From assembly GCA_000004985.1 (NCBI GenBank), contig GG738875.1: 64,000 nucleotides of DNA; one strand, given 5' to 3'. The notes below the pieces were generated by a model, which saw only the letters and a list, made by a program, of their open reading frames with translations, was not told where the DNA came from and did no database searches. Position 1 is the first letter of the stretch. Each line of letters opens with the position of its first letter. Origin of the DNA: Naegleria gruberi. Taxonomy: Eukaryota. A program made the translations under genes and the position numbers. Shown piece by piece: positions 4,894-35,223 of the stretch.

Positions 4894-6519
4894 TTACCAC
4901 CTACTTGAGAAGGCAAATATTTCAATCTTGGTGAAATCAAAAGGACGACCACCTTGCAAAGTACAGGTTCCTTTCTTGGAAATTTCTGCAAATGATTTTA
5001 CATAAATAAAGTAGTTTGAATCAGTTTTTGGAGTTGCTTTTTGTTTTTCACATGTGAGAATCAAGTGATTGTTAATTATTTCAGCTCGCTCAGAGTCTTT
5101 TCCAATTGGGTTTTCAAAATAAACAGATTGTTTCTCAGATTCACTCCAAATAATGGCAAGAAAGCCATAACATGTTGATTGCTCATTCACTTCCTTCTTA
5201 AATTCCTCAATAGATGTTTTTGGGTTGATGGTAAGAATCAATTGATTTTGATATCTGAAACGTGTTTGCAATTCAAAATGATATAGTTGATTTGAGTCTA
5301 ATAAGGCACATTTCATATTGTTAATTGATATTTTGATTTCAAGAGGTTTTGTTTTTGAAAACTTGTTGCCTTGGAAATAGTTCAAATTTGGGAAAATGGC
5401 ACCTGACAAGTCACATTGGTTGAAACTGTTCTCCCAATCATCACTGAAACAATATCCAAACATATTACAGGATTCAAATTCACAATTTTCAAATTTAGCA
5501 CCTGATTGCTTCCAAAATTCACAGTCTTTGAATAAGGTATTTACAAATACTTTTCCTTTCAAAGATTCTTGATCGAATGATTTCTTTTCAAATTTTAAAA
5601 TTGGGGTACAGTTTCTAAATGTTGCATTTTCGGGATTGGAATTAGTGAAATCTATATTTTGAAAATCACAATTTTCGAAACATGCATATTTTAAATTGCA
5701 TGAGGTCAGATTTGCTGCAGAAAAGTTTCTACAAGATCTGAATTGTGCACTCTCAAGATTAGAATTACTCAAATTTGCAGAATTAAAATCACATTCTTTG
5801 AAAAGTACTTTTTTCAGACTACAAGAGCTCAAGTTTACCGAACTAAAATTACACGATTCAAATGTTGTGTCATCCATTCGATTTGAATTTAGTTTGGCTG
5901 ATGTGAAATTTGAATATTTGAAAAAAGAATTGTCCATTTTTGAAGAACTCAAATCACAATTCGAAAAATCAGCATTTGATAGTGTTGCTTTGCATAAAGA
6001 GGAATCACTCATTACACAATCTTTGAACGAAATTTTCTGTGCTTGTTCTAGTTTAACTCTATCCAAATTAATTCTCTTCAAATTTCGACCAGTAAAGTCC
6101 AAAATAGGTACATGCATTATCTCATGTTTAACAATCTCCAACACTGCACTGCTGACATCAAGTGTAGTGCTGTTACTTGTTTCAGATTCCAAGATTTTCA
6201 ACAAATTCACACAATTCAACTCTTTGCAAGCATTTATCAATTCTAATTTTTGATATTCTGATAAATCTCTATTTACCATTCCGTACTTTAACCAGTTAAA
6301 GATCATGTTAAATATTTTGTGTGGACAATTAACAAAATACACAGGATCAGTGAATAAATTGGATGGTGTTATTGTAGGTTGAATTTGTTGTTGTGTGAAA
6401 AGTTTAGAAAAGAAGGTGTCTGTTTCTCTTCCACTTTTAATTAATTCATCAGGAATGATGGTGCGGATCGTACCACCAACATTCAAATGAACGGGTTGTG
6501 AGGTAGTGATTGTGGACAT
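4894..6519 (-). CDS. KCTD9-like protein: N-terminal BTB/T1 (K+-channel tetramerisation-type) domain followed by a long pentapeptide-repeat region.
   Basis: The N-terminus (VHLNVGGTIRTIIPDELIKSGRETDTFFSKLF) resembles the KCTD BTB motif. The C-terminal half has tandem 5-residue periodicity typical of pentapeptide repeats, e.g. SNADFSNCDLSSSKM, ANLSNSNLESAQFRSC, FENCDFQNIDFTNSN. Confidence 0.6.
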   Translation of the reverse strand: MSTITTSQPVHLNVGGTIRTIIPDELIKSGRETDTFFSKLFTQQQIQPTITPSNLFTDPVYFVNCPHKIFNMIFNWLKYGMVNRDLSEYQKLELINACKELNCVNLLKILESETSNSTTLDVSSAVLEIVKHEIMHVPILDFTGRNLKRINLDRVKLEQAQKISFKDCVMSDSSLCKATLSNADFSNCDLSSSKMDNSFFKYSNFTSAKLNSNRMDDTTFESCNFSSVNLSSCSLKKVLFKECDFNSANLSNSNLESAQFRSCRNFSAANLTSCNLKYACFENCDFQNIDFTNSNPENATFRNCTPILKFEKKSFDQESLKGKVFVNTLFKDCEFWKQSGAKFENCEFESCNMFGYCFSDDWENSFNQCDLSGAIFPNLNYFQGNKFSKTKPLEIKISINNMKCALLDSNQLYHFELQTRFRYQNQLILTINPKTSIEEFKKEVNEQSTCYGFLAIIWSESEKQSVYFENPIGKDSERAEIINNHLILTCEKQKATPKTDSNYFIYVKSFAEISKKGTCTLQGGRPFDFTKIEIFAFSSRW

Positions 6520-6581: not shown

Positions 6582-7751
6582 TTAAAAACATTTTCTTTGA
6601 ACTATTCCACTCCCAACCTCCTTATATTCATCTTTAGTAATCCACAAAGATTGAAAGCTTGATAATGATGCAAGAATGCTACCTCCAATCCAGACTGTTT
6701 CGCATCCCTTAGTTGGGCCATCCACACGAATTTTCATTGATGAAGGAGCTACCAGTGTTAATTCCTTGTGTATCCTCTCTGACATTCCCTTAAACATGGT
6801 TGTTCCACCTGAAAGAATAACATTCGAATATAAATCCTTTCTAATGTCAATATCACAATTTCGAATAGAATCAAATATTATTTCGTGTACTCCTTTATCT
6901 TCAATTCCAACTAAATTAGGTTGAAACAGTAATTCTGGACATCTGAATAGCTCATTTCCAATAGCGAGAAGTGTTCCATCTGGCCATTCATAATCAACAA
7001 TAGATGAATTGATCTTATATTGCTTCATTTCCTCCTCAAAATCCAAAGCTACATAACAATATCTTTCTTTCATATCTTTTACATATTCTCTTTCAAAACT
7101 GTATTGTAAATTGTATCCTCTTTCTTTCAAGAGGATCATCAAATGGTCAACCAAATCATCTCCTGCCCAATCTAATCTGCAAGTGGCATGCTGCAAAGCA
7201 TGACCTTCAAACACTGGAACCGATTGTGTAATATGATAACCAGAATCCAAAACTATTCCAGTCACGCCACCAGATGCATAGAGCGACAATACAGCTTGAT
7301 TGGCCAAATACATGGCTGGTACCTTATACCCTTCAAACATGATTTGAGTTGTTTTTTCTCTATTTTCCTTTGGATTTTGTTGTTCAGTTAGCATGACTTG
7401 ATGTTCCTCTGGCACAACTCTCAACTCATTGTAAAAGGCATGGTTCCAAACCAGCTCCATATCCTCCCAATTTGTGATCACTCTCTTGTCCACTGGATAA
7501 TGGAGACAAAGTGATTCTCCCCGATGAGAGGTTGCTCTATATCCTACATATGTAGGATTGCTTGAAAGTTTATTCCTTCGTTTGCCTACGATTGAAGGAA
7601 AGCTGTCTGTTGGAGAGTTTTCACCTGCAAAACCAACTTTACACATGCAAGATCCATTATCAATCACGATAGATTTGTTTAGAGACATTTTTTTGTTGGT
7701 TCTAGTGCAAATGATGATTGAACAATGTACTTGAAGAAATAATAGGGACAC
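6582..7751 (-). CDS. Divergent actin / actin-related protein.
   Basis: 389-aa ORF colinear with conventional actin over its full length: IVIDNGSCMCKVGFAGE, NWEDMELVWNHAFYNELRVVPEEH, NREKTTQIMFE, LDSGYHITQSVPVFEG, DIDIRKDLYSNVILSGGTTMF, WIGGSILASLSSFQSLWITKDEY, C-terminal RKCF. Confidence 0.8.
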   Translation of the reverse strand: MSLLFLQVHCSIIICTRTNKKMSLNKSIVIDNGSCMCKVGFAGENSPTDSFPSIVGKRRNKLSSNPTYVGYRATSHRGESLCLHYPVDKRVITNWEDMELVWNHAFYNELRVVPEEHQVMLTEQQNPKENREKTTQIMFEGYKVPAMYLANQAVLSLYASGGVTGIVLDSGYHITQSVPVFEGHALQHATCRLDWAGDDLVDHLMILLKERGYNLQYSFEREYVKDMKERYCYVALDFEEEMKQYKINSSIVDYEWPDGTLLAIGNELFRCPELLFQPNLVGIEDKGVHEIIFDSIRNCDIDIRKDLYSNVILSGGTTMFKGMSERIHKELTLVAPSSMKIRVDGPTKGCETVWIGGSILASLSSFQSLWITKDEYKEVGSGIVQRKCF

Positions 7752-7760
7752 GAAACGAAG

Positions 7761-8702
7761 TTAATGGTTGACTGGGGTAACCTTAAGAAGTTTCTTCAAA
7801 TCTTGGTTTTCAGTGTTGACTAAATTTACAGCCCTGAATCCATTGAGAGTTAATTTGTGTTTGTCAGCTCCATGATCAAGTAAATATTTACAAAGAGAAT
7901 AGTTTTGTTTGCAGGCAGCCAAATGTAGACATGTGTATCCATCAAAATCTGTAGCATTGAGATCCATACCTCTCTTTTCAATGAGATATTCCACAATTTG
8001 TGTGCTACCTCTTGCACAGGCAATGTGAAGGCAATTTTGTCCATAGGTTCTATTTCCAATCATAAAGTGATCATTGTTACACATTGGTGGAAGTAGATTT
8101 TCACACATCCAAATAAATTTTGAATAAGCATTGGAATAGGCAAAGTTCATAAGAAGGGTAGAACGATTGTAATCTTTCACATTGAAAATATTCAGAATGT
8201 CCATCGTTTCACGGTTACGATACAACATTTCATAAAGCTTACACAATTCACAGAACAGAGCTGTGCATTCCTGTTCTGGATCAAAAATTGCTTGTAACAC
8301 AACAGATTTTTCTATATAATGTTTCAAATTATAAACTCGAATCAAAACAAGTGGTCTTTCCAATTCGTATGAAATTATATTCTTCCAAGCAAACGGATTC
8401 TTTATCGTTTTCAATTCTTTCATGATGAAAATATCCACAAATTTCTCTTTAGGATCCAACAATTCTACTCTCATCACACAACTGTTACTTTTTTCATCGA
8501 AAAAACAAGATTCTACTCTTTGGAAATTACGAGAGAAATTATTTAAATACAATAATAGTTGAAAGGAAGGATCTTGATGAATAATTTGATAAAATTCGTG
8601 GCAAACTAAATTAGCAGATCGGAAGAGATTTTCCAGAGGTAAATACTCGAGAATGGAGTGATAAATTTCCCTTGGTAGTAATTGATTTTCTAATGATATC
8701 AT
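7761..8702 (-). CDS. F-box / ankyrin-repeat protein.
   Basis: N-terminal F-box-like LPREIYHSILEYLPLENLFRSANLVCHEFYQI. C-terminal ankyrin-type repeats (NCLHIACARGSTQIVEYLIEKRGMDLNATDFDGYTCLHLAACKQNYSLCKYLLDHGAD). Confidence 0.6.
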   Translation of the reverse strand: MISLENQLLPREIYHSILEYLPLENLFRSANLVCHEFYQIIHQDPSFQLLLYLNNFSRNFQRVESCFFDEKSNSCVMRVELLDPKEKFVDIFIMKELKTIKNPFAWKNIISYELERPLVLIRVYNLKHYIEKSVVLQAIFDPEQECTALFCELCKLYEMLYRNRETMDILNIFNVKDYNRSTLLMNFAYSNAYSKFIWMCENLLPPMCNNDHFMIGNRTYGQNCLHIACARGSTQIVEYLIEKRGMDLNATDFDGYTCLHLAACKQNYSLCKYLLDHGADKHKLTLNGFRAVNLVNTENQDLKKLLKVTPVNH

Positions 8703-8993: not shown

Positions 8994-11900
8994 ATGCCGC
9001 CACTCCTTTCCTTCCATTCTTCTTCCATTATTATCATCCTCATTCTCTTCATCAACAGCATTTTCTTCATTCACTCCTCATTGGCTTCATCTAAAACAAC
9101 AATTATAAAAACAACAGCAAATAATTACAATATTAAAATAGTGGCAGGAAGTTATGGCAATACCATTGATTCCTATCATTTTCCGATCATATCCGAGAGT
9201 CCAATTTATGTGCAATCATCCTCATCATCATCATCTGTGGTGGTGATGGAGAAGGAGGAGGATGATGGTGATGAAATAATATATTTATCAGATACACAGT
9301 TTTGTGTGGTGAGGAAAATTCAGAAAAGTTTGAGTGTTGTGGTGGCAGGAAATGGAATTTGTGCAGTTCCTGGAGAGACAAGTGGATTGGCTGTTGAATT
9401 TTCATTGACATCACCAGGTGGTGTTTATTTGGATGAATCTACTAATATATTATATATTTTGGATAATGGATTGAGTAATTCAGGAGGTTTTGTTAGAACT
9501 GTTGATATGTCAAGTGGAATGTTAAATACTTTGCAATTGACCTATGAACCTGCAGTGCTTATGTTAAAAAGTCCAACAATGATAACAAAGAATGGTGGAA
9601 TATTTTACATTGCTGATACTGGCAATAATGTTATTAGAAGTTTGACATTTACTGGACAAAATACTGCTCATTGTAAAGTAATTATTGGTGCAGTCAACCC
9701 TGACGTATCAATGAGTTGTGTTAATGTTGACCCATTGAGTTGTCAACTTTCTTCTCCAACAAGTATTACATTTTCATCTGATGGAATGATCATTACTGAC
9801 CAGCAAAACAGTAGATTTCTCGCTTTACAAAATGGAATTGTGTATCCATATTCTTTGGTAATACCAACTCCATTGCAAATAATGAGTTTGGGAAATGCTG
9901 AATATATAGTTTCGAATGGAGAAATATTGTATTCCCTCACACAAACCACAAAAAATGGTGCAGATTCAACTATTCTCCTGAAGGATAAAAGTTGGCCAAT
10001 TGGATATTTTGGAATTGATTCAGCACAAACTAATCTTTATTTCATGAGTCAATTGCCAAATTTAGCAGTATCACAAATTGTTAAATTCAACATTCAATCT
10101 CTTGGTCAGCCAACAGTCATTGGTGGTGCATATCCTTATACTTTGAGTCCAAACGTGCCTGCTTCTAGTTACTATTTTAATGGATTAACTCAATTAGAAT
10201 ATGTCAGTGATAGTGAAATTTATTTCGCATCCTATAATACAGATATTATCAAATTTGATATGACAGCAGGATTGGCCACAAGAATTGCTGGTAATATGAA
10301 TCAACCATCAGCGTTATCAAAAATTTCTAAAGGCCTATTAGTTGCAGATACTGTTAATAGGTTAATTAAACTTATTGATGGTGGTGGATCTGTCTCTACT
10401 GTAGCAGGTACAAATTCAAATGGAATAGGTTGTCCTGAAGGAGTTCAGGCTACTAGTTGTGAATTGAATTTACCCAGTGGTGTGGTAGGTACACCCTCAA
10501 TACTATCAAATCAATACATGTTTGTAATTGCTGACAGTAATGCTAATACTCTAAGGATGGTAGCTAATGATTTCACTGTTACAACATTAGCCAACTCTGT
10601 ATCAAATGTGAGATATCCAACGGGTTTATATTACACTGCTAATGGAGATTTATATTTTGCTAATACTGGAACTTCTCAAATAATGAAATTAGCTCATGAT
10701 AATACCATCGCAGTAATTGCAGGAACAGGAGAAAAAGGAAACAAAGGCGATGGTGGATTAGCTGTGAATGCTGCATTGAATTACCCAACACAGGTTACTG
10801 TCACTTCAAATGGAATATTGTATATAGCCGACACTGGCAACAATGCTATCAGAAAAATTGATTCCAATGGTATTATATCTACTGTTACACATAATGCTAT
10901 TCAAGGAATTAATGGTGTTGCCACGACTTCTGAGGGTGAACTACTATACGCTGATAGTTATACTGTAAGAATGATTCAATCGGTAGCATGTATTAATCCA
11001 CAAGGCCAAGTTTGTTCAAATCATGGGAAATGTGTGGATGGGCAATGTCTATGTGAAAGTGGATGGAGAGGTGATTCAGTGTGTGGAACTTTTTCATGTG
11101 ATATTCCAAAACCACCAAATGCACATAATTGTATTGGACCTAACCAGTATTCATGTATGAATGGTTGGTTTGGAGATTTGTGTAATTTACCAATTTGTTT
11201 TGGAATTCAATATAATAATTCAGCTGTTTGTAGCTCACATGGAAAATGTGTATCTAACAACACATGCAATTGTGAAAGTGGATGGAATGGAAATACAAAA
11301 TGTGGGACCTTTTCGTGTGACATTCCAAAACCACCAAACGCCTTTGAATGTATTGGACCTAATCAATATTCATGCATGACTGGTTGGTTTGGAAATTCTT
11401 GTGAACTACCAATTTGTTTTGGAATTCAATTTAATAATTCAGCTGTCTGTAGCTCACATGGACAATGTGTATCTAACAACACATGTATTTGTGAAAGTGG
11501 ATGGAGAGGTGATTCAGTGTGTGGAACTTTTTCATGTGATATTCCAAAACCACCAAACGGTCAGCAGTGTATTGGACCTAACCAGTATTCATGTATGAAT
11601 GGATGGTTTGGAGATTTGTGTAATTTACCAATGTGCTTTGGGATTCAATATAACAGCTCTTCTGTTTGTAGCTCACATGGAAAATGCATATCCAACAATA
11701 CATGCAATTGTGAAAGTGGATGGAATGGAAATAAGCAATGTGGGGCCTTTTCGTGTGACATTCCAAAACCACCAAACGCCTTTGAATGTATTGGACCTAA
11801 TCAATATTCATGTATGGATGGATGGTTTGGAGATTTGTGTACTTTTCCAATTTGTTTTGGAATTCAATTTAATAATTCAGCTGTTTGTAGCTCACATGGA

Positions 11901-13865
11901 AAATGTATTTCCAGTAATACATGCAAGTGTGAAAGTGGATGGAATGGAAATAACCAATGTGGAGCTTTTTCATGTGACATTCCTTCTCAACATGGAATTT
12001 GTATTGGTCCAAACACTTTCAAATGTCAAGATGGATGGACAGGACTCGAATGTGAAATTCCAATTTGTTTTGGAAAATTAGGAAATGATCCTAGAGTGTG
12101 TAACTCACAGGGAAGATGTATTTCTAATAATACATGTCAATGCAATAGTGGATGGAAAGGAAATTCTGAATGTTCTCAATTCTCATGTGATGGAATGGCT
12201 GAATGTTCTCAAAATGGTAAATGTATTTCTAATAATACATGCCAATGCAGATCAGGATGGTCTGGACCAAAATGTGATATTGTTGCATGTGATGGAGTTC
12301 AAAACTGTCATGCTAATGGTTTGTGTATTTCAAACAATACTTGCAAATGTAATAGTGGATGGGAAGGTCAATCATGTTTGGAGTATAATTGCAATGGTAC
12401 CAACAATTGTCAACCGAACGGTCTATGCATTTCGAATAATACTTGTAAATGTAATGATGAATTTGGTGGAAATGATTGTTCAATACCTTACTGTTTTGGA
12501 AAATTGGGTAATAGTGGATGTGAAGATAATGGAATTTGCTCATTTTTCAACAAGTGCTCATGTTTTCCTCTTTACTTTGGAGATCAATGTTCATGGTTAG
12601 ATTGTGATCCAACTTCAAAAGATACATCCCAAAATTCAACTAAAAGATGCTCCTCAAATGGTTATTGTGTTATGACCAGAAATAATTTGAATCAAAATTC
12701 TACCATTTGTGAATGTAATAAGGGATATAATGGTCAATTTTGCCAAAATAGTGATTCTACGAATGGATCGGGAACAATAGCTGCTATAGTTGTTACAATA
12801 CTTGTTATAATTTTGGTATTTATATTAATGATAAGTGTTGGTACTTTTATCTATGTTAAAAAGTTCAGAAACAAATATCAAGATCCAGAGAAAATGAAAA
12901 TGTTAAACAATACTACACCATCAACTTATTCAGAATCAAGTTGGTCAAATTCTCTCTCCATTCAGAATGACACTAGTTTAATAAGTAATACTCACAGTAG
13001 TATTTCATCAAAGACACATTTCAAAATTAGGGATAAAGAATACATAATGGAAAGAAAATTAGGAAGTGGTGCTAATGGTTCTGTATTTGTATTTAAGGAA
13101 ATTAATACCAATCAGCATTTTGCCGTAAAGCAAATAGAAGTAACAAATCCATTTGGTACGGAATTTAAAGAAGTCGTGAATATGTTTGAATTGACTGAGG
13201 ATTCTAATGCTCATATTGTACCAATTATTGGCTGTACAATGGTCGAGAATGGAGGATTCATTTGTATTCTCATGCCACTCTACAAGTGTGATTTGAGAGA
13301 TTGGATATATACAAATCAAAAATCAATCACAATTGATCTAATTATTGAAATTGTAAAACAAATTGCTTTAGGATTACAATATCTCCATTCCAAGAATATG
13401 ATACACAGAGATTTGAAACAAACAAACATATTCATTGCCAAAGCCAATGAAAAAGATGTATCAAAATGTGATGACTTTTTATTGTGCATTGGAGATTGGG
13501 GATCTTCCAGATCTAATTCACGATCTGGTCTGACTGTCTATGAAGGAACAATTCAATTCAGTTCTCCAGAAGCAATCATTAAGGGAGAAGTTGAACAAGC
13601 AAGTGATATTTGGAGTTTGGGATGTGTTTTCTATCAATTATTATCTGGAGATTATGAATCAATTTTGTTTAGGATTAAACAAGGCAATGATCTGGCAGAT
13701 AATGAAGTACTCTTACCAAAAATTCTTAATTTTGGTAAAAAGATGAATTACAGAGATGGAAAGGTTCAATTTTGTTTTGAATTATTGTGTGAAATGATTA
13801 GATATGATGCCAAGATGAGATTAACTGCCCATCAAATTTTAGCCAAGATTGAAAACTTTAAATAA
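8994..13865 (+). CDS. Receptor-like transmembrane kinase: signal peptide, NHL-type beta-propeller repeats, tandem tenascin-type EGF repeats, TM helix, cytoplasmic protein kinase domain.
   Basis: Hydrophobic N-terminus. Repeated YIADTGNNVIR/YIADTGNNAIRKI/YFANTGTSQIMKL NHL-like motifs. About 5 units of ~73 aa with the CxCxxGWxGxxC EGF pattern. TM stretch IAAIVVTILVIILVFILMISVGTFIYV. Kinase motifs GSGANGSV, AVKQ, HRDLKQTN, DWG (variant DFG), SSPE (variant APE). Confidence 0.7.
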   Translation: MPPLLSFHSSSIIIILILFINSIFFIHSSLASSKTTIIKTTANNYNIKIVAGSYGNTIDSYHFPIISESPIYVQSSSSSSSVVVMEKEEDDGDEIIYLSDTQFCVVRKIQKSLSVVVAGNGICAVPGETSGLAVEFSLTSPGGVYLDESTNILYILDNGLSNSGGFVRTVDMSSGMLNTLQLTYEPAVLMLKSPTMITKNGGIFYIADTGNNVIRSLTFTGQNTAHCKVIIGAVNPDVSMSCVNVDPLSCQLSSPTSITFSSDGMIITDQQNSRFLALQNGIVYPYSLVIPTPLQIMSLGNAEYIVSNGEILYSLTQTTKNGADSTILLKDKSWPIGYFGIDSAQTNLYFMSQLPNLAVSQIVKFNIQSLGQPTVIGGAYPYTLSPNVPASSYYFNGLTQLEYVSDSEIYFASYNTDIIKFDMTAGLATRIAGNMNQPSALSKISKGLLVADTVNRLIKLIDGGGSVSTVAGTNSNGIGCPEGVQATSCELNLPSGVVGTPSILSNQYMFVIADSNANTLRMVANDFTVTTLANSVSNVRYPTGLYYTANGDLYFANTGTSQIMKLAHDNTIAVIAGTGEKGNKGDGGLAVNAALNYPTQVTVTSNGILYIADTGNNAIRKIDSNGIISTVTHNAIQGINGVATTSEGELLYADSYTVRMIQSVACINPQGQVCSNHGKCVDGQCLCESGWRGDSVCGTFSCDIPKPPNAHNCIGPNQYSCMNGWFGDLCNLPICFGIQYNNSAVCSSHGKCVSNNTCNCESGWNGNTKCGTFSCDIPKPPNAFECIGPNQYSCMTGWFGNSCELPICFGIQFNNSAVCSSHGQCVSNNTCICESGWRGDSVCGTFSCDIPKPPNGQQCIGPNQYSCMNGWFGDLCNLPMCFGIQYNSSSVCSSHGKCISNNTCNCESGWNGNKQCGAFSCDIPKPPNAFECIGPNQYSCMDGWFGDLCTFPICFGIQFNNSAVCSSHGKCISSNTCKCESGWNGNNQCGAFSCDIPSQHGICIGPNTFKCQDGWTGLECEIPICFGKLGNDPRVCNSQGRCISNNTCQCNSGWKGNSECSQFSCDGMAECSQNGKCISNNTCQCRSGWSGPKCDIVACDGVQNCHANGLCISNNTCKCNSGWEGQSCLEYNCNGTNNCQPNGLCISNNTCKCNDEFGGNDCSIPYCFGKLGNSGCEDNGICSFFNKCSCFPLYFGDQCSWLDCDPTSKDTSQNSTKRCSSNGYCVMTRNNLNQNSTICECNKGYNGQFCQNSDSTNGSGTIAAIVVTILVIILVFILMISVGTFIYVKKFRNKYQDPEKMKMLNNTTPSTYSESSWSNSLSIQNDTSLISNTHSSISSKTHFKIRDKEYIMERKLGSGANGSVFVFKEINTNQHFAVKQIEVTNPFGTEFKEVVNMFELTEDSNAHIVPIIGCTMVENGGFICILMPLYKCDLRDWIYTNQKSITIDLIIEIVKQIALGLQYLHSKNMIHRDLKQTNIFIAKANEKDVSKCDDFLLCIGDWGSSRSNSRSGLTVYEGTIQFSSPEAIIKGEVEQASDIWSLGCVFYQLLSGDYESILFRIKQGNDLADNEVLLPKILNFGKKMNYRDGKVQFCFELLCEMIRYDAKMRLTAHQILAKIENFK
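10990..12060 (+). repeat. Tandem 219-bp coding repeats (EGF-like units) with a two-unit, ~438-bp higher-order periodicity.
   Basis: ccaatttgttttggaattcaat... recurs at about 11191, 11409, 11629, 11847 and 12059. Alternate units share GWRGDSVCGTFSC versus GWNGN.QCG.FSC variants. Confidence 0.8.
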
Positions 13866-14090: not shown

Positions 14091-15170
14091 TTAATATTGT
14101 TTCTGGAGTCCATATTTGAAATCTTTAGTCTCAGTGGTGGTTCGGTATCGAATAATCATTTCAACGAGTAGTTCAGCAATACCCACACCATCCCTTGCAC
14201 TAGTGTGTACAATTGAGCAATTTAGGATCATGTTCTTTCTGAGAACTCGTTTCACATATAATTCCCTAGTTTTTTCATCGTGTTCTCCATATGTAATATC
14301 ACACTTTGTGAAAACAATGATTATTGGACTATTATTGACCTCTCTAATACGAACAATTCTCTGTAGCAATTTATCCAAAAAATTGTAACTGTGCTCTATT
14401 GATTTTTGATTATCCTTCGAATAATTACTCCAATAAGGTTGTGGTGGTATTGTTAGTAAAATTATATCACTAATCTGTATCATCCGATCCTGTAAGGACA
14501 CATACTCATCCATTGCATATGTATCCACAATTTCCAATTGATATTTAGCATCCGAATATCGAAACTCTTTCAAATAAGTATCCTCAATTTGCATCTCATA
14601 TGGAGAATTGAAAAATTCACCAGACAGTACTCGACATAGACTTGATTTTCCAGAACCATACTCTCCAATACAAAATATCTTACATTTCAAATCCTCAACA
14701 TTCATTTGAGAATTTTGATTAATATTACCAACACTATTCGATTCATTTTTCTTCATTATTGGAATCAATTGTTCCTCATACTGAATCTGCAACATTCTCA
14801 CTAACATGCAATAGTATCGTTTGGCTTTTTTCTTGATTTTTTCTCTAAGTTTCTTCTCTTCCTGCAGTAGAGAATGGCCAAGAAATTCCCTCTCCATCAA
14901 ACTCAACCAAAATTCATTGAAATAATTAGAAATTTCCAAAGATTCGGATAAAAAGAAGGAACAAGTGGATTGGAGTGAAAGGATGCTCTTTTTTACTTCA
15001 TCAATTTGTAGATTAATGAAATTATTTGATGAAGTGTTGGCAGTTTGATGATGAACAGGTAACAGAAAGGAAAATATTTCACGGAAAATGTCATGTGGTA
15101 AAGATAATAGTGTGAATTTTGACATTTTTTTTAAGTTGTTAATTACAAGTTGGAACTTGGTTTGGAACAA
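14091..15170 (-). CDS. F-box protein with a C-terminal Ras-superfamily small GTPase domain.
   Basis: N-terminal F-box-like FTLLSLPHDIFREIFSFLLP. GTPase motifs G1 GEYGSGKSS, G3 DTYAMDE (no catalytic Gln), G4 TKCD, G5 TSAR. Confidence 0.55.
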   Translation of the reverse strand: MFQTKFQLVINNLKKMSKFTLLSLPHDIFREIFSFLLPVHHQTANTSSNNFINLQIDEVKKSILSLQSTCSFFLSESLEISNYFNEFWLSLMEREFLGHSLLQEEKKLREKIKKKAKRYYCMLVRMLQIQYEEQLIPIMKKNESNSVGNINQNSQMNVEDLKCKIFCIGEYGSGKSSLCRVLSGEFFNSPYEMQIEDTYLKEFRYSDAKYQLEIVDTYAMDEYVSLQDRMIQISDIILLTIPPQPYWSNYSKDNQKSIEHSYNFLDKLLQRIVRIREVNNSPIIIVFTKCDITYGEHDEKTRELYVKRVLRKNMILNCSIVHTSARDGVGIAELLVEMIIRYRTTTETKDFKYGLQKQY

Positions 15171-18010: not shown

Positions 18011-21000
18011 TTATTGGGCTTTTCTTGGTTCAATAACGAGAGACTTCTTGTGAAGTTCATCATCATTGGTGATAATTCCTTCAAAGATTTGTTCTTTAAG
18101 AACATATTGAAGGTAAGGAATAGGTTCTAAACGATACAAGTTGGAACAACTTTGTAAATCCTTTACAGTTTGAATAGTATTATAGTAAATTCTTCTCTTT
18201 TGATAATTAATGAGTTTCTTGTTTGGATTCTTAGGGTGATTAAATTCATCAGGATTACCATCAGAAGTGAAGGTCAAATCAGTTTGGAAGATACCAATAA
18301 ATGGAACGATTGGAGTATTATTGTTAACAATGGTATTCTTCAAATTTTCTCTCAATTTGATACGATTGTTAGCATGTAAGTCATCAAAGATCTTAAAGAT
18401 GTTGGCATCGTCTTGTGAGAGAACTTTTCTTGTTTCTTTCAATCTATAAACAGGAACAGATTGCAAACCTGAAATAATGGCAAAGAAGGCACTATAGTTA
18501 TTCAATTCATAAGTTTCCTTAGCAATTTCAACAAACTTCTTAAACAATGCCTTTCTAATTTCGGTATTTGACTCTGTCAAGATTGTAGTTTGAACCCAGT
18601 AACTGATATTGTTTACACGGTCAGTCAATGAAGAAATGTGAGGAGCCAATTCATACTTGTACTTGATATCACTCCATGCAGAGTTATAGAATTCGTTTGC
18701 TTCAATCTTCTTAAAGATCTTCAAATCAATAATAGTTTCTTGTCTAGCAATTTCAGTAGCTGGCCAACTCAACAAGTTGAATTGAATATTGTAAGGATTA
18801 GGCATGCCTTCATTAATGTATTTGGACTTTTGAATCTTCCATTGGTTAAGAGAGATTTCTGGTTCTTTCAACTTTTCAATTGGAACACCTTTAGGAATCA
18901 TGACAGTGTTAGATTGGCCATGATGACTGGTTGAACCGGATTCATCCTTCTTGAAACTAAGCAAGTTTTGAACAAGAGTCTTTCTAATCTTCTTCAAAGT
19001 TGGGTGAACCCTCTTTGCACCATCCTCTTGTTGTTTCTTTCTGATTGGTTGGGCAATTTCTTCAAAATAGTGCGCATAAAGAGCAACAGCTTCATTGTCA
19101 AGAGCATGGAAAGCTTCCTTGAGGAGTTCATTCATTGCTTGTTCAATGTAGAGACGAACAGTGTTATTCTTGATAACAGATCTGTAGACTCCCATAAGAC
19201 GATTCATCAGAGAACGTGCTGTGGTGAATGATGAGAAGGTATTGAGGAAGGTAGAATGGAAAACACCTCTCAATTCAGTTTCACCTTCCAATGTTAGCAT
19301 TCCTACGAATTTTTCCACCAACTTCTTCAATGTACCAGATGAAATTGTACTACGCTTAATATCAACATTGACATCTTCTGGTTCATCTTCCAAATCAACT
19401 TCACTCTCAAAGTTAAGAACATAAGAAAATGGTTCCAAGAGCAAAGCCATACATTCCTTTGAGATTTGAATAGACTCACCAATAGCCTTATCACCCATCA
19501 GTTCTTCAGTGTACAAACTACAAGCTCCCAAAAGCCATCTCCACTTTTGTTCAACCTTACGTTTTTGGGCGTAAGGAACTCTGTCCTTCTTTGGAATTGT
19601 TAGGTCATATAAATCTGGACAGACAAGACTGTGGTTAAAGCTAGTAAGGAATGGATGCAAACAATCTTGGAATATGAGAGACACAACCTTGAATTCATCC
19701 TTCATAGTCAATTGGAAAATCATGTTAAATATCAATCTTGAAATTGAACGCAAAAGCAAGGATTTGACTGGAGTCATTGTCTTGGTATTTCTGGTGATTT
19801 CTAGTTTTGAAATGACTTGGACATATTCTTCCTTGTTAGCCAAGAGCTTATCTATTGGATATTTAACATTGATATTTTCAAAGATTTGATTGAGAACATT
19901 CTTCTCAGTGATCTTGCTGAGGATATAATTAACAGACAAAACTGTTTCGATACGAATATTTCTTTGTCCTCCCTTCTTCCTTTCTTTTGGAATGGATGAA
20001 GAATAATCGAGGTGATGTACAGACATGACTACATAGTCTAAGAATGAAATACAATTGATCATCACGTGTAGAGGAGCTTGAGTCCACCATTGGATGAGTC
20101 TTTGTTCTGAGAGGTTTCTCAAAACCCAAAGAAGACAGAAAGAGGTCAAGATGTAAAGTTCATCATTGTGGAACATTGTAAGGTATTCTTCCTTATCCAT
20201 ATATCTGTCAACAAAATACAAGAAAATTTCTGCAATAGCGGCTCTCTTGGATGTATCTTGATATCTTGAATCAAAGTCAATCTTGCAGAATAAATCTAAC
20301 AAGTATTTGCCAACTTTGAGCATGAGCTTTTCATTATTAGTTTCAATGGTGGCAAAGAAAACATCAAATAAGTGTCTAACCATAAAGTTTCCTTCTTGCA
20401 ATTGCAAACTGTTGAGTGGAATGAAATAGTCATAGTCGCACAAAATGGCAACAAACTCTGACTTTAATCTCAAAAGTGCTTCAGTACTAGCATCTCCTGA
20501 AAGACAATCCATATAGTGCTTGACAATATCAATATAGTATTCTCTATCAATGAATGGAATTAAATCTCTAATAAACAATGCCAAGTTTCTGTTACTATTC
20601 AAACCAATATTTTGTCTACCTGAACCACTAGAAGACAATAATTTCTTTGTACGAGAACAGAAGTGATGCATTAATTGTTTGACCTTTCTCACAAAGTATT
20701 CTTGAGAAAGTGGATGTTCATCATTCCACCCATATCCATCGTTAGACTTATTCAAATACCAACTGTCCTTGATGGTGAGACAATCCAAAGAATCAGTCTT
20801 GATACACAATGTCAAACTCTTAATAATAACATCAAAGATAAACCAAGAGAAACGGAACGGATCGTGTTCAGTCAAATTGTTAGTAACAAAGTAGTGTTTG
20901 GTTGGTTCTTGCAAAATCTTTGTCAATTCTTCCAAATAGTCAGTAAAGACACGAGTTAAAACTGAATAAATTGGATAACCTCTATTCATTTCGTCAAAGA

Positions 21001-24000
21001 TATACTTGGTATATGAAGCCATAAACTTGTTACCTCTGGTATGATTCTTAGTAAGATGGTAAACACCTCTCAAACAGACCAATACTTGTTCGAAGATTAA
21101 TCTTTCAGCACCCTTTCTCAAATCAGTAGAGTGAATAGATAAATCAGAAATGTTACTCATGAGTTCAAACAAAATATTCATAACAATTGGTAAGTGAGGC
21201 ATAAATAAGGAAAAGTCAATATCACAGAACTTCATCAAAATGGATCTGCAAATGTATTCCAAAATCTTTTCCTTATTCTCAGTCTCAGGGCTATACAAAT
21301 CGTGAATACTGGCAAAGAAGAGTTTCAAAATATCATCACGTGGATTGATTGTTGAAACAAGTTGTGCCATAAGCTTGAATCTGGCATCACTTATTTTTTC
21401 AAGAGTGCCCTTAGTTTGACTCTTAGTAAGGTAATCTGGTTGGAGTTCCTTGTATACTCTGAGTTCTCCAGTAAAGAATTGCTTTTGGAAATCAGTATGT
21501 TTGAGTTGATAGATTGCTTGTGCCTTGTCAGCTTCATAAATCTTGTTCTTTTCAGTCAAATCCAAGAATGAATAACCTAGGATTGCTCTATCACTGTTAC
21601 CAAAATCATCCTTTCTATCCAAGAATTCATACTTTAGCTTATTAGACTTTTTATCAATATCAATATGATAGAAAGTGAAAAGCAAGTGATTACCCTTGTT
21701 TGAAACAGCTGGAATATCAAGCTTAATTTCATCAAGGAATTGTGGAGTCTTATTATCATACTCAAGAGCAGAGAATTCACTATGCTTCTTTTCAGAAGTA
21801 AATCTGTTAATAATGACTGGATTAGATTTTTGAAGCTCTTCCAATGTTGGAATAGTGCTATCTGATTCTCTGAAAATTACCTCAATGAGAATGTTCTTAC
21901 CATTAGCCTTTTCCAATTTGACACCTTGTGGATAGACATACAAAGTATTTTGTAAGTTCATGTATGGATATCTGATTTTGTACCATGGAATTTCATTAAC
22001 TGAAATAGACTCTAAAATCTTCATTTGCTCTTCAAAGAGGGCTTTTCCGAAATCACCAGAATTTAGGATGACTGAATTACGACGTTCGGCCTCACTTTCT
22101 TCATCTTCTTCTTCCATAACATTGGCAACATCAGTACTATCATCTCCCAAATAATTGTTTGGTGTTTGGTAAGATGAGTGGTCTTCATTGATACTTCCAC
22201 TGTCTTCAGAATCTTGCTTGTATATGAGTTGACTATCACCAATACCAGCTCCAGTATCTTCTGATGGTTTTGATAACTTGTACTTTTGAAGATCACTGAT
22301 CAACTCAACGTAAACCTTCATTGTAGCGTTAACAGAATGGTGTTTAGTCTTTTGCTTAAGTGCAGAGTAAACATTGAGTGGATTTTTGTAATCACCTTCA
22401 ACAAAGAACATTTGTTCAAAGTTCAAAATACTAGATGTCAACTCTATCTTCTTCTCATTGATTTTAAATAAAGGTACAAATCCAAAGAATGCTGGATACC
22501 TAAAGAAAGCCAACTTGTCCTTCTTTTCTAAAAATTCGGAACTAAATTCCTTCTTCTTGTGTGCCTTGATTGTATCCTTGGTTGGGCCATTGGATACACG
22601 GTTAACAAACAATACCAAAAACATTTCTTCATTTGGTGAAGAAACTGAGAATAATCTCTTCTCAGTTCTAGCAACACCTCTCTTTTGAAGAGAATTATGG
22701 AGGGATTCTGGAAGTTTCATCAATTGTTCATCAGTGAACATGTGGAAGTGATAATCTTCGCTGACCTTCTTTAAATATTTGGCATCATAGATGGCAACAG
22801 AGAATGTGAATAGATCATTTTGGAGTTCAGTACTATCCATAAAAATAAAATCGCTGCATGATAATTGGAATCTGAACTTTTTCTTGACAGGATATTCAAT
22901 TTCAGGGAATCTTTGACACATAGTAGTATGGAGTGGTTTGTATTCATATCTTGGTTGTAAAACTCCCATCAATCTCTTAGTATCCTTTTGAACATTTTTA
23001 CGATTCAATTCGGCAATATCGTTCAATTTCTTTTGAGGATCAACACTCAAACTGTCAGTCTTTTGCAGTTCTGCAGTGAGTTCATTCAAAAGTTCAAGAG
23101 GACGCTTAGCACACAATTCCTTAGCCTTTTCAACCAAACTCTTTTTCAAAGATTTGGAAATATCGATTTCATCAAAAGCATCAACAGCCTTCTTTTCACC
23201 AGTCTTCTTTTGAAGATTGGCAATTTCCTTCTCTGAAAGGTTTTGTTGATTAGTTACAAGAGAGGTGAAGCTCATTTGTCTTGGGAAGTTTGGATCGTTT
23301 GGATCGATGGTTGGAACCTCCTTCTTAGTTTCAGATCCTTCCTTTCCTTCCTTATCGTCCTTCTTAGTACTAGATTCGGTATTTTGTGCAGTAGTCTTGA
23401 AGATATTATTCCAAATTGATTTTCTCTTGTCTCTGTTTGTTGCTGCAGGGGAACCGGCTGAACTTGATTTACCACTACCAGAAGCAGCAATAGAATCACG
23501 ATTACTACTTCTAGACAAGGCATTCTTTAACTTTTTGGACAAGCCACTTTCTGTAAAGTCACCCATTTGTTCAGTAGCACGGAAAAGCTCCTCTGGATCT
23601 TTAGAAGTTTGTACTTCAGTAGCCTTTTCAGCTTGGGCTTTTTCAATGTCTAAAATCTTGGACATGGAAGGTAAGATATCGTCATCATTTGTATCTTGAT
23701 TCTCCTCTTCCTCTGATTTCTTTTGTTCCTTCTTATTCTTCTTAGCTGATTTATCCTCATGTTCAGTTGATTGTGTTGCTGTTGTTACCGTAGTACTGTT
23801 AGTAGGAGCCTCAGAATTAAGAATTGCATATTGTGGTTTGAAAGGAGACATTCTGTATGGATTTGCTTCATAATGCAAAATCTTGAATGGTTTATAGAAA
23901 ACTTGCAAACAGTGTCTCACATGAGGGAATTTGAAATAAACAACTTCCTCCAAATTAGTATCTGCATCACTTGATTTCTTTGTAACTTTTTGTAAATATC

Positions 24001-25522
24001 CACCTCCGTAAGAAAGGAATCTGAAAAAGTTTTTAACAAGTAATCCCTTATGTTCTGAATTTTCTTTGCTTGGTGATGTTTTTGTACCATTACTACTGGA
24101 TTCATTGGTGGAATTGCCTGTAGCAGGAGAGAGTGCATTTTGTTCAGAAGGTGATCCAAGAGTATTCAATGATGTATTAACACTACCACCTCCGCTACTA
24201 ATGAGCATACTATTAGAATGTTGTTGAATTCTCATACTTGATGATCTCATCAAAATTCTTCTAGATGTCTGATTACGAAGAGATCCAGTATTGAACAATA
24301 CCATCCACTGTGTTTGATCAATTTCCTCAATTGAAAATGGATCCATAGCTTGCATATTCACTGGTAAAGGTGATTTTTGCTCGCTGCTCTTTCCATTAGT
24401 GTCATCAGAGAGAGTTGAAGCAATCATTTTCATTAGCTTTTGTTGACGTCTCTTTTCCTCTTCTGTCATTGGTGGAGGAGGAGTGGCAGGTGGAGGAGGA
24501 AGAGGTCCATTATATGAAGTAATAGTGAGTTTTCCACTTGTAGTTGTAGTAACAGTGTTATTATTATTGGTGGAAGATGTAGAACTGCTAGCAGAACTGG
24601 TAGTGTCATGCTCAACACTTGTTTGACTAGTTGATGATGATGTCACTTCAGTGTGTTGTTGTACAGGTTCTTCTTCTTCGTTTAGACGTGGAGTTGGTTG
24701 TTCAACACTGATGGCAACATCAGCAACAAATGAAGTTGAATTACTGGTAGTAGTATTATCATTAGTGATACTAACAGCTACCTCTTGTTGTTCAATTACA
24801 ACAGCATCACTGTTGGAGTCTGCCCTAGAAACCAATGTTTCTTCTTGTGTAATATTAGTGGAAACTGGTTCATCAAGTACTACTTCTTGTTGGACAACAT
24901 CAGTGGACGATGTTTGTGATGAGTCAATAATGACCTGGCCAACAGGTGTTTCTTCTACAATAATTGTATTCTGTTCTTCGACAATAGTCTCGCTTTGTAC
25001 CTTTGATACTTCTTGTTGTTGATGATCATCGTGGTCAACATTCGTTATTTCTGCTGTACTTGTAGTTGAAGAATTCAAATTGTTGGAAACTGGTTCATCA
25101 TAATGATGATTTACTTCTTCTATTGTTGTTGTAATTGCTTCTTGTGGTTGTTCTACAGAATTGTTGCTGCTGTCATCACTTGCCTCCTTATGATGAGTAG
25201 AAGAAGATTTAGAAGGACTACCTTCAACTTTTGTATCCACAATAGTAGCAGTAGAATTATTATTATCATTGGAATTGTTGGTAGTAGTGGTACTATCATC
25301 ATGACTAGTTGGAGGTGTTATTGTTTGTGGTTGTGATGTATTATCTAGTTGTTTTTCTTCATCATCAGAAAGACTACTTCTTCTTGATGAATTAGTTGAA
25401 GAGGAAGAAGATGAAGTGGATCCTTCTTGATGTTCATCTTCTTGATTGCTGACAGCAGGTTGATGATGGGTTATTGATGAGTGATTTACTTCATCAACAT
25501 TAGATGATTCATGATGGTCCAT
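18011..25522 (-). CDS. Giant (2503-aa) Ras guanine-nucleotide exchange factor: low-complexity S/T/N-rich N-terminus, DOCK DHR-1-like segment, long helical/ARM-like middle, C-terminal CDC25-homology RasGEF domain.
   Basis: The C-terminus has CDC25 signature blocks NYSAFFAIISGLQSVPVYRL and VPFIGIFQTDLTFTSDGNPDEF. The middle segment NTLYVYPQGVKLEKANGKNILIEVIFRESD resembles the DOCK DHR-1 core (..DLYLTLERGEF.KG.K...NVEV..). Confidence 0.7.
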   Translation of the reverse strand: MDHHESSNVDEVNHSSITHHQPAVSNQEDEHQEGSTSSSSSSTNSSRRSSLSDDEEKQLDNTSQPQTITPPTSHDDSTTTTNNSNDNNNSTATIVDTKVEGSPSKSSSTHHKEASDDSSNNSVEQPQEAITTTIEEVNHHYDEPVSNNLNSSTTSTAEITNVDHDDHQQQEVSKVQSETIVEEQNTIIVEETPVGQVIIDSSQTSSTDVVQQEVVLDEPVSTNITQEETLVSRADSNSDAVVIEQQEVAVSITNDNTTTSNSTSFVADVAISVEQPTPRLNEEEEPVQQHTEVTSSSTSQTSVEHDTTSSASSSTSSTNNNNTVTTTTSGKLTITSYNGPLPPPPATPPPPMTEEEKRRQQKLMKMIASTLSDDTNGKSSEQKSPLPVNMQAMDPFSIEEIDQTQWMVLFNTGSLRNQTSRRILMRSSSMRIQQHSNSMLISSGGGSVNTSLNTLGSPSEQNALSPATGNSTNESSSNGTKTSPSKENSEHKGLLVKNFFRFLSYGGGYLQKVTKKSSDADTNLEEVVYFKFPHVRHCLQVFYKPFKILHYEANPYRMSPFKPQYAILNSEAPTNSTTVTTATQSTEHEDKSAKKNKKEQKKSEEEENQDTNDDDILPSMSKILDIEKAQAEKATEVQTSKDPEELFRATEQMGDFTESGLSKKLKNALSRSSNRDSIAASGSGKSSSAGSPAATNRDKRKSIWNNIFKTTAQNTESSTKKDDKEGKEGSETKKEVPTIDPNDPNFPRQMSFTSLVTNQQNLSEKEIANLQKKTGEKKAVDAFDEIDISKSLKKSLVEKAKELCAKRPLELLNELTAELQKTDSLSVDPQKKLNDIAELNRKNVQKDTKRLMGVLQPRYEYKPLHTTMCQRFPEIEYPVKKKFRFQLSCSDFIFMDSTELQNDLFTFSVAIYDAKYLKKVSEDYHFHMFTDEQLMKLPESLHNSLQKRGVARTEKRLFSVSSPNEEMFLVLFVNRVSNGPTKDTIKAHKKKEFSSEFLEKKDKLAFFRYPAFFGFVPLFKINEKKIELTSSILNFEQMFFVEGDYKNPLNVYSALKQKTKHHSVNATMKVYVELISDLQKYKLSKPSEDTGAGIGDSQLIYKQDSEDSGSINEDHSSYQTPNNYLGDDSTDVANVMEEEDEESEAERRNSVILNSGDFGKALFEEQMKILESISVNEIPWYKIRYPYMNLQNTLYVYPQGVKLEKANGKNILIEVIFRESDSTIPTLEELQKSNPVIINRFTSEKKHSEFSALEYDNKTPQFLDEIKLDIPAVSNKGNHLLFTFYHIDIDKKSNKLKYEFLDRKDDFGNSDRAILGYSFLDLTEKNKIYEADKAQAIYQLKHTDFQKQFFTGELRVYKELQPDYLTKSQTKGTLEKISDARFKLMAQLVSTINPRDDILKLFFASIHDLYSPETENKEKILEYICRSILMKFCDIDFSLFMPHLPIVMNILFELMSNISDLSIHSTDLRKGAERLIFEQVLVCLRGVYHLTKNHTRGNKFMASYTKYIFDEMNRGYPIYSVLTRVFTDYLEELTKILQEPTKHYFVTNNLTEHDPFRFSWFIFDVIIKSLTLCIKTDSLDCLTIKDSWYLNKSNDGYGWNDEHPLSQEYFVRKVKQLMHHFCSRTKKLLSSSGSGRQNIGLNSNRNLALFIRDLIPFIDREYYIDIVKHYMDCLSGDASTEALLRLKSEFVAILCDYDYFIPLNSLQLQEGNFMVRHLFDVFFATIETNNEKLMLKVGKYLLDLFCKIDFDSRYQDTSKRAAIAEIFLYFVDRYMDKEEYLTMFHNDELYILTSFCLLWVLRNLSEQRLIQWWTQAPLHVMINCISFLDYVVMSVHHLDYSSSIPKERKKGGQRNIRIETVLSVNYILSKITEKNVLNQIFENINVKYPIDKLLANKEEYVQVISKLEITRNTKTMTPVKSLLLRSISRLIFNMIFQLTMKDEFKVVSLIFQDCLHPFLTSFNHSLVCPDLYDLTIPKKDRVPYAQKRKVEQKWRWLLGACSLYTEELMGDKAIGESIQISKECMALLLEPFSYVLNFESEVDLEDEPEDVNVDIKRSTISSGTLKKLVEKFVGMLTLEGETELRGVFHSTFLNTFSSFTTARSLMNRLMGVYRSVIKNNTVRLYIEQAMNELLKEAFHALDNEAVALYAHYFEEIAQPIRKKQQEDGAKRVHPTLKKIRKTLVQNLLSFKKDESGSTSHHGQSNTVMIPKGVPIEKLKEPEISLNQWKIQKSKYINEGMPNPYNIQFNLLSWPATEIARQETIIDLKIFKKIEANEFYNSAWSDIKYKYELAPHISSLTDRVNNISYWVQTTILTESNTEIRKALFKKFVEIAKETYELNNYSAFFAIISGLQSVPVYRLKETRKVLSQDDANIFKIFDDLHANNRIKLRENLKNTIVNNNTPIVPFIGIFQTDLTFTSDGNPDEFNHPKNPNKKLINYQKRRIYYNTIQTVKDLQSCSNLYRLEPIPYLQYVLKEQIFEGIITNDDELHKKSLVIEPRKAQ

Positions 25523-30372: not shown

Positions 30373-30442
30373 AAAATCATTTGCATTAGCCGGGAGTCGA
30401 ACCCGGGTCACCAGCTTGGAAGGCTGGTATGATACCGTTACA
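30373..30442 (-). tRNA. tRNA-Gly (anticodon UCC).
   Basis: Reverse complement GCATTAGTAGTGTAACGGTATCATACCAGCCTTCCAAGCTGGTGACCCGGGTTCGACTCCCGGCTAATGC folds as a cloverleaf: 7-bp acceptor stem, anticodon loop CTTCCAA, T-arm GGGTTCGACTCCC. Confidence 0.8.
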
Positions 30443-30489
30443 CTACTAATGCTCTTGAAATATTTTTTAAATTAAGGAAATTCAGGAAT

Positions 30490-35149: not shown

Positions 35150-35223
35150 TACGCCGTAAGGGAGTCGAACCCTTGACCTTCAGCGTGTAAAGCTGACGAT
35201 CTAACCAACTGATCTAACGGCGC
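35150..35223 (-). tRNA. tRNA-Val (anticodon UAC).
   Basis: Reverse complement GCGCCGTTAGATCAGTTGGTTAGATCGTCAGCTTTACACGCTGAAGGTCAAGGGTTCGACTCCCTTACGGCGTA has a 7-bp acceptor stem (one G-U), D-arm GATC...GATC, anticodon loop TTTACAC, T-arm GGGTTCGACTCCC. Confidence 0.8.

Follow-up and report, generated by a model that had tools for sequence, protein, structure and literature searches.

Does Naegleria gruberi join an F-box to a Ras-like GTPase in a single polypeptide, and would such a GTPase still switch between nucleotide states? The question is raised by an open reading frame (ORF) at 14091..15170 on the minus strand of a 64,000-nucleotide stretch of contig GG738875.1 (assembly GCA_000004985.1), hereafter the window, whose coordinates are used throughout. 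An earlier reading of the DNA letters alone (the original prediction) had described an F-box fused to a small GTPase that lacks the catalytic glutamine. Our analysis confirms one gene, in which an N-terminal F-box-type domain is joined to a Ras-family G domain without Gln61 and Gly60. The motifs on which that description was built (LLSLPHDIFREIFSFLLP, GEYGSGKS, DTYAMDEY, TKCD and TSAR) are all present verbatim.

The frame is uninterrupted over its whole length. The TTG at its 15170 end is a start codon permitted only by the bacterial code of the ORF lister; the eukaryotic start is the first ATG, at 15125, which with the stop at 14091 yields a protein of 344 amino acids (aa) beginning MSKFTLLSLPHD. 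The 45 nucleotides upstream of this ATG, up to 15170, are non-coding.

14091..15125, minus strand: complete single-exon coding sequence, 344 aa plus TAA stop, corresponding to XP_002675968.1 (ORF and database identity)

The product is 100% identical over its full length to XP_002675968.1/EFC43224.1, annotated as "ras family member" of N. gruberi and encoded on a 396-kb contig. At a stop frequency of 0.06 per codon across all frames, the chance probability of a 344-codon ORF is about 6e-10. The window itself, with about 33% GC and closely packed, mostly uninterrupted ORFs, fits the N. gruberi genome. No stop, gap or frame change separates the F-box half from the G-domain half. With the ORF continuous, and with its colinear architecture found again in paralogs and in three species, a fusion of two genes by annotation is excluded at the DNA level.

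This recurrence emerged from an exhaustive phmmer search of 1.84 billion representative sequences, which returned mostly Ras-only matches together with a group of proteins, about 310-340 aa long, whose alignments span both halves of the query (P0009 over aa 8-327, P0109 over aa 1-326, and also P0013 and P0010). P0006 aligns to the N-terminal half alone (aa 2-142). The family is drawn from several N. gruberi paralogs, N. lovaniensis, Willaertia magna and metagenome contigs. Its N-terminal domain is common to at least ten N. gruberi paralogs, and a hidden Markov model (HMM) of this domain, A2, finds it in 14 of the 158 retrieved proteins; the match of A2 to the query is partly circular, as the query sits in the A2 alignment. 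Further N. gruberi paralogs with the same N-terminus appear in Table S8 of Herman et al. 2021 (BMC Biol 19:142, PMC8296547). Word-indexed homologue searches, which are insensitive for this protein, retrieved the query itself from the query alone, nothing from the N-terminal profile and six proteins from the full-length profile, and tblastn within the window found no paralog of either half elsewhere. For this protein, homology is colinear across the N-terminal domain, the linker (with the marker residues K102, which is invariant, and W73) and the G domain. The family as a whole consists of a divergent F-box-type domain, a helical linker, a Ras-like G domain and mostly a polybasic-CaaX tail, and is restricted to Heterolobosea (Naegleria, Willaertia).

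Can the N-terminal domain be assigned to the F-box family? In this protein its segments are as follows.

15057..15110, minus strand: F-box helix 1, aa 6-23, LLSLPHDIFREIFSFLLP, Leu-Pro followed by a hydrophobic heptad (partial Pfam alignment and hhalign)
14994..15056, minus strand: lineage-variable insertion between F-box helices 1 and 2, aa 24-44 (family alignment)
14952..14993, minus strand: F-box helix 2, aa 45-58, KKSILSLQSTCSFF (hhalign alignment and helix of the structure model)
14895..14927, minus strand: F-box helix 3, aa 67-77, NYFNEFWLSLM (family alignment, hhalign and helix of the structure model)
14691..14894, minus strand: helical linker, aa 78-145 (family alignment and structure model)

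The family consensus reads LPxEILxxILSFL ... LQSICxxF ... FNxFW, followed by the helical linker with an invariant Lys and then by the G domain. Within helix 1, P10 is invariant and L9 nearly so; the helix 2 consensus LLKLQSICKQF corresponds to the canonical LlrlrlVCKrW, and the nearly invariant W73 of helix 3 to the canonical LW. In the linker, the invariant K102 belongs to the family motif KRxYxLL. The length of the insertion between helices 1 and 2 differs across the family and is zero in P0058, which has canonical spacing and covers positions 3-43 of the 47-position F-box profile.

Scored against the Pfam cut-offs (gathering thresholds of 20.5 bits for F-box, PF00646, and 24.3 bits for F-box-like, PF12937), eight of ten members match an F-box model below threshold, the best at 21.4 against 24.3 bits, and no member reaches the F-box gathering threshold on its native sequence. 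The family consensus obtains 21.8 bits natively; after removal of the 12-residue loop between helices 1 and 2 it obtains 31.0 bits for F-box-like and 23.4 bits for F-box, both above the cut-off. It is loop insertions that hide the F-box from Pfam. Using hhalign, we compared the family's N-terminal profile (A2) with seven F-boxes that were verified by Pfam and not chosen by the A2 profile: Skp2, beta-TrCP, Fbw7, Cdc4, TIR1, an N. gruberi F-box-Rab and the F-box-ankyrin gene of the window. The alignment spans 48 columns and all three helices, with a probability of 96.6% and E = 5.1e-10. Its score of 52.7 compares with a mean of 8.2 ± 1.9 and a maximum of 16.6 over 200 column shuffles, and with 10.9 for the reversed profile. 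Profile comparison thus recovers, at family level, the three-helix F-box pattern of about 45 residues (LP with a hydrophobic helix 1; L..VCK.W; LW). Searched against PDB sequences, the N-terminal profile produced five matches, the top four of which are the F-box proteins FBXL5, FBXO3, Legionella AnkB and cyclin F; these align at their F-boxes and in the same register, each with an E-value that is marginal alone (0.15-0.87).

The AlphaFold2 (AF2) model is consistent with this layout. Built from an 81-sequence alignment, it has a predicted local distance difference test (pLDDT) score of 79.6 (36.8 from the single sequence) and places helices where F-box helices are expected, then a helical linker, then a Ras fold. 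The N-terminal helices span aa 11-21, aa 34-54 (this one with pLDDT 81-84) and aa 64-88 (pLDDT 85-88), with a loop at aa 26-36 below 50. The linker comprises helices at aa 91-98 and 101-129, with pLDDT of about 90, and a disordered stretch at aa 133-139. Overall, the model resembles the F-box-linker-receptor arrangement of classical F-box proteins.

At family level, the N-terminal domain is a highly diverged F-box, and this member inherits the assignment by homology to its relatives. One alternative is a family-specific helical domain in which Skp1 binding was lost or never present, serving for example in dimerisation or in autoinhibition of the G domain. Such a domain would accommodate the failure of every member at the native Pfam threshold, the insertions found between all three helices in both the family alignment and hhalign, and the marginal PDB E-values. 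We consider it very unlikely in view of the profile-profile probability with shuffled controls far below, the shared register of the top four PDB matches, the consensus that passes both cut-offs once a single loop is removed, and the canonical spacing of P0058.

The C-terminal half raises the second part of the question, whether the GTPase can still switch. Its motif states were read from an H-Ras-anchored family alignment.

14136..14690, minus strand: Ras-family G domain, aa 146-330 (Pfam Ras)
14643..14666, minus strand: G1/P-loop GEYGSGKS, aa 154-161, GxxxxGKS intact, Gly12 replaced by Tyr (H-Ras-anchored alignment)
14574..14600, minus strand: switch I YEMQIEDTY, Pro34 replaced by Met and the invariant Thr35 by Gln (H-Ras-anchored alignment)
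14502..14525, minus strand: G3/switch II DTYAMDEY, aa 201-208, Asp57 (D201) kept, Ala59 replaced by Tyr, Gly60 by Ala and Gln61 by Met (H-Ras-anchored alignment)
14400..14447, minus strand: 16-residue insertion PPQPYWSNYSKDNQKS after beta-4, unique to this protein (alignments)
14298..14309, minus strand: G4 TKCD, aa 273-276, NKxD with Asn replaced by Thr, Lys and the guanine-specifying Asp kept (H-Ras-anchored alignment)
14193..14204, minus strand: G5 TSAR, aa 308-311, SAK with Lys replaced by Arg (H-Ras-anchored alignment)

The small GTPase of the original prediction is borne out: Pfam Ras (PF00071) matches aa 149-324 with 52.4 bits against a cut-off of 21.6, Roc passes just above its own threshold, and the AF2 model shows a Ras fold. 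The NCBIfam scan gave small_GTP at 36.6 bits, under its cut-off of 42.5. By sequence, the closest solved relatives are Ras and Rap1 (E = 1.7e-11 to 1e-10). The loss of Gln61 and Gly60 is likewise as described, as Q61M and G60A. Four further features had escaped the earlier description, namely the Tyr at position 12, the Gln at position 35, the absence of a CaaX box and the insertion after beta-4, which falls in a low-confidence pLDDT block around aa 231-240.

At the motif level, the nucleotide-binding elements are retained: G1 as GxxxxGK[ST], G4 as [NT]KxD, G5 as SA[KR], and Asp57. The switch and catalytic residues are not; Gly12, Thr35, Gly60 and Gln61 are Tyr, Gln, Ala and Met. In Ras, Gly12 and Gln61 are required for intrinsic hydrolysis and for hydrolysis stimulated by GTPase-activating proteins (GAPs), and Thr35 and Gly60 are the 'loaded-spring' gamma-phosphate sensors whose contacts drive switches I and II. 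Because both sensors are replaced, no GTP/GDP-dependent shape change is expected. Judged by these motifs, the G domain probably still holds guanine nucleotide, without hydrolysing it and without a nucleotide-dependent change of shape.

Elsewhere in the family, canonical GxGGVGKS, PTIED and DTAG persist in about half of the relatives, with position 61 variable (P, A, Q, H), and the N. gruberi paralogs XP_002673059, XP_002681395 and XP_002680859 are also degenerate, with the CaaX box kept. This variation bears on the functional proposal of the original prediction, a control of substrate ubiquitination by nucleotide state: a working GTPase with very slow hydrolysis, whose GTP/GDP state gates the recruitment of substrates to an SCF (Skp1-Cul1-F-box) ligase. 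The retained G1, G4 and G5 motifs and Asp57 speak for it; the canonical paralogs P0009, P0010, P0013, P0016 and P0101, which keep Thr35 and DTAG/DTPG, could work in this way, and Herman et al. propose GTPase-dependent ubiquitination for Naegleria F-box-GTPases generally (PMC8296547). In this copy, however, Thr35 and Gly60, the couplers of the gamma-phosphate to the switches, have become Gln and Ala, and Gly12 and Ala59 have both become Tyr, which makes a nucleotide-gated switch unlikely here. Very slow hydrolysis and a constitutively bound state remain reasonable expectations; the substitutions go further, and a locked, non-cycling pseudoGTPase is the more likely state of this copy.

The tail sets this copy further apart.

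14094..14135, minus strand: C-terminal tail, aa 331-344, ending ...KYGLQKQY (comparison with relatives)

No CaaX or polybasic-CaaX prenylation signal is found at the C-terminus of this protein, and prenylation is therefore not expected. Full-length relatives end in KKCSIM, KKCMVM, KKCYLQ, QKCIVM, KKCVVM, KKCLLQ or SSCGLM. By its sequence, this copy is a fast-evolving, species-restricted offshoot of the family. Might it then be a decaying or neutrally drifting paralog, a product of birth-and-death evolution in an expanded Ras complement with no maintained biochemical function? It has no close orthologue, the next best matches being partial and 36-40% identical; its Ras score is 52 bits, against 97-140 bits in its relatives; the CaaX box and four catalytic or switch residues are gone, and both domains carry unique insertions; and its two nearest relatives (P0006 and P0154/P0002) are truncated. 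Birth-and-death dynamics and pseudogenes are also noted by Herman et al. in related F-box-Rab-like clades (PMC8296547). Decay nevertheless seems improbable to us, since a 344-codon ORF has stayed intact in a genome of 33% GC, the F-box keeps its hydrophobic core positions and the G domain its nucleotide-binding motifs, the AF2 model is confident, and the curated Table S8 gives no pseudogene flag.

The analysis shows the structure of the gene, the homology of its domains, its place in the family, the state of its motifs and its fold; Skp1 binding, nucleotide binding without cycling and an adaptor role are inferred. We postulate that the family comprises SCF-type adaptors, in which the F-box would dock the protein on Skp1/Cul1 by homology and the Ras-like domain would take the place of the WD40 or LRR domains of classical F-box proteins as the partner-binding module. 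The residues that would hold a nucleotide are retained in this copy, namely Lys/Ser in the P-loop, Asp57, Lys and Asp in TKCD, and SAR. Its loss of Thr35, Gly60, Gln61, Gly12 and the prenylation signal makes a soluble, nucleotide-binding, non-hydrolysing and non-switching pseudoGTPase the most likely state, which would present a fixed Ras-like surface on the SCF scaffold. We assign this reading a rough probability of 0.55.

Several observations weigh against it. The native sequence of this protein obtains 11.9 bits with Pfam F-box, against a cut-off of 20.5, and 10.9 bits with F-box-like, against 24.3; both models align only through profile positions 1-18, that is helix 1. The N-terminal fragment alone rises to 14.6 and 13.5 bits. 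By the Pfam thresholds that the original prediction had itself named as decisive, the F-box fails on this sequence; it stands at family level, through the profile alignment and the consensus without its loop. When the query alone is aligned to the F-box profile with hhalign, helix 1 is again the only part recovered (aa 8-23, E = 0.003, probability 9.7%). Removal of aa 23-44 brings the query to 21.0 bits for F-box, above 20.5, and to 23.3 for F-box-like, just under 24.3, a gain that is partly tuned, since the deletions for Pfam rescoring were picked by the analyst. Fold searches with the whole model return GTPases only and match nothing to the N-terminal part. In this copy, the 21 residues inserted between helices 1 and 2 could disrupt the binding of Skp1, and Tyr at positions 12 and 59 could, by steric hindrance, block the gamma-phosphate site or prevent nucleotide binding altogether. 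Finally, no orthologue above about 40% identity was found in databases that include N. lovaniensis and Willaertia.

Even with a functional F-box, its main effect could fall on the protein itself, making the GTPase a short-lived SCF client through auto-ubiquitination or rapid turnover. This role was suggested for the F-box of the rapidly processed TbFRP (PMC3593210), and RhoBTB proteins are inactivated by auto-ubiquitination (PMC4931677). As the principal function we hold it unlikely; it also overlaps with the adaptor reading, as F-box proteins generally are both receptors and auto-ubiquitination targets.

A more far-reaching proposal, and quite an unlikely one, is that the Ras-type clade forms an unrecognised class of SCF substrate receptors whose Ras-like domain would bind the substrate, this copy being a soluble, locked Ras decoy. 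Ras G60A is a dominant negative that traps guanine nucleotide exchange factors (GEFs), and because of this the decoy might sequester regulators or effectors of Ras, RasGEFs for example, and hand them to the proteasome. Only 3 kb separate the F-box-Ras gene from a giant DOCK-C2/RasGEF gene, a kind of proximity that in eukaryotes is without demonstrated meaning.

This neighbour, an ORF of 2,503 aa two genes away from the F-box-Ras gene (18011..25522, minus strand), has a DOCK-type C2 domain (aa 1188-1397, 99 bits) together with RasGEF_N and RasGEF domains (167 bits), an unusual mix of a module from the Rho-GEF family with a Ras-GEF catalytic domain. At 8994..13865 on the plus strand, a predicted receptor kinase of 1,623 aa carries an N-terminal hydrophobic signal, teneurin-type NHL repeats, about 12 teneurin-like EGF repeats, a transmembrane segment and a protein kinase domain (145 bits). 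The F-box-ankyrin gene at 7761..8702 (minus strand), which served as the in-window reference for an unambiguous N. gruberi F-box, has a canonical F-box-like domain (27.2 bits, above the cut-off; 29.9 for the N-terminal fragment) followed by ankyrin repeats. At 56678..58735 (minus strand), a domain of the PhoPQ-activated pathogenicity-related family (316 bits) is fused to an ice-binding-like domain (42 bits); both families are typically bacterial, and horizontal acquisition is therefore possible. Other features of the window are listed below.

4894..6519, minus strand: pentapeptide-repeat protein
6582..7751, minus strand: actin (389 bits)
27735..28457, plus strand: ADP-ribosylglycohydrolase-like ORF
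30382..30452, minus strand: tRNA-Gly(TCC)
35150..35223, minus strand: tRNA-Val(TAC)

Among the proteins retrieved by homology, several stand outside the family. P0075, considered as a closer relative without a CaaX box, has an identity of only 25%; it too is an N. gruberi paralog, and its N-terminus is truncated. Although P0003 (Anaeramoeba) and P0155 (moth assembly) share a length of 541 aa, they were rejected as unrelated outside the Ras domain. P0003 (Anaeramoeba ignava KAJ5070002.1) is a protein with tandem Ras domains, in which Pfam finds four Ras stretches totalling 366 bits and each Ras domain is followed by a polybasic, KKKKGKC-like segment. P0032 (544 aa) fuses RING, IBR and IBR, an RBR-type E3 ligase, to a canonical Ras domain (Ras 142 bits, IBR 74.6 bits) and is a more direct fusion of ubiquitin ligase and GTPase. 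The metagenome proteins P0023, P0052 and P0031 form a separate Ras-like group of about 315-340 aa that begins with MGN or MGG (possible N-myristoylation); their conserved, Cys/His-rich N-terminal extension is unrelated to the F-box family and has no match to the A2 profile.

How much does this locus add? The novelty implied by the original prediction does not hold, as F-box-GTPase fusions and the idea of GTPase-dependent ubiquitination have already been published for Naegleria (PMC8296547), and TbFRP has been known since 2013 (PMC3593210). The present result is a modest addition and not a discovery, extending the published F-box-GTPase list (Rab, Rho, Ran, Gα) to the Ras family, and it opens no long-standing question; the genetic toolkit for Naegleria is limited. 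A cryptic, insertion-split F-box is present in a block of genes from Naegleria and Willaertia that curation lists as plain "Ras", and domain scans that depend on thresholds under-count such fusions. If the fusions are true SCF receptors, recognition surfaces like those of small GTPases would be coupled directly to ubiquitination, as in RhoBTB with Cul3, and this copy would be a natural case of a pseudoGTPase used as a fixed binding module.

The nearest known systems are those of the same organism. Herman et al. (PMC8296547) re-annotated more than 350 N. gruberi genes of the Ras superfamily, found the F-box to be the most frequent extra domain on Naegleria GTPases (their Supplementary Material 4), described its fusion to Rab/Rab-like, Rho, Ran and Gα proteins, and proposed GTPase-dependent ubiquitination. 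Our protein shares with these fusions an N-terminal F-box ahead of a Ras-superfamily G domain, a lineage-specific expansion with birth-and-death dynamics and the same functional idea; one subgroup of them also has a CaaX box. It differs in that their listed F-box partners are Rab, Rho, Ran and Gα, not Ras, and in that, in the Ras-type clade, insertions interrupt the F-box, which scores under the Pfam thresholds; this copy moreover lacks the CaaX box and the switch residues. In Table S8, XP_002675968.1 and its paralogs stand under "Ras"; neither an additional domain nor a pseudogene flag is given for them, nor any orthologue beyond Heterolobosea. The entries given as plain "Ras" are this gene and XP_002668509, XP_002674532, XP_002673033, XP_002668758 and XP_002671663, so that the cryptic F-box of the clade appears to be unflagged there.

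TbFRP (Tb927.7.3790), a FYVE-F-box-Rab-like GTPase of Euglenozoa (PMC3593210), likewise comes from a discoban protist and has its F-box upstream of the Ras-superfamily GTPase. Its group carries a FYVE domain at the N-terminus and a Rab18/Ypt6-like G domain, whereas the G domain here is Ras/Rap-like. Orthology was considered and is rejected here: Pfam finds no FYVE domain in this protein even at E <= 10, and the G domain is Ras-like (best matches Ras and Rap1), not Rab-like. As the authors of TbFRP also found no Naegleria orthologue (PMC3593210), the Naegleria fusion is probably independent. These comparisons concern the fusion itself; the state of the G domain has parallels of its own.

Rnd, RhoH and kappaB-Ras are examples of pseudoGTPases. 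As in these proteins, the equivalents of Ras positions 12 and 61 are substituted here and the P-loop and guanine motifs are intact; proteins of this kind are expected to be constitutively nucleotide-bound and not to cycle. Unlike this copy, they generally keep Thr35 and Gly60; since both are lost here, the GTP-induced conformation may not even form. The concept of small GTPases that bind nucleotide and are catalytically inactive is set out in PMC12490416 and PMC5593906.

The closest functional analogue is RhoBTB, where a covalent fusion links an atypical G domain and an adaptor module of the cullin-RING type. RhoBTB1/2/3 are atypical Rho GTPases with BTB domains that assemble cullin-3 ligases; their Gly12 is replaced, their switch II is altered and no GEF or GAP is known for them (PMC4931677). 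The two fusions are not homologous, differing in module and ligase (BTB/Cul3 against F-box/Skp1-Cul1), in domain order, which is opposite, and in G-domain type (Rho against Ras); Pfam finds no BTB domain in this protein, and the likeness is functional only. RhoBTB nonetheless provides a precedent for a cullin-adaptor GTPase domain that works without a GEF/GAP cycle, with regulation proposed to occur through intramolecular or partner interactions and auto-ubiquitination (PMC4931677).

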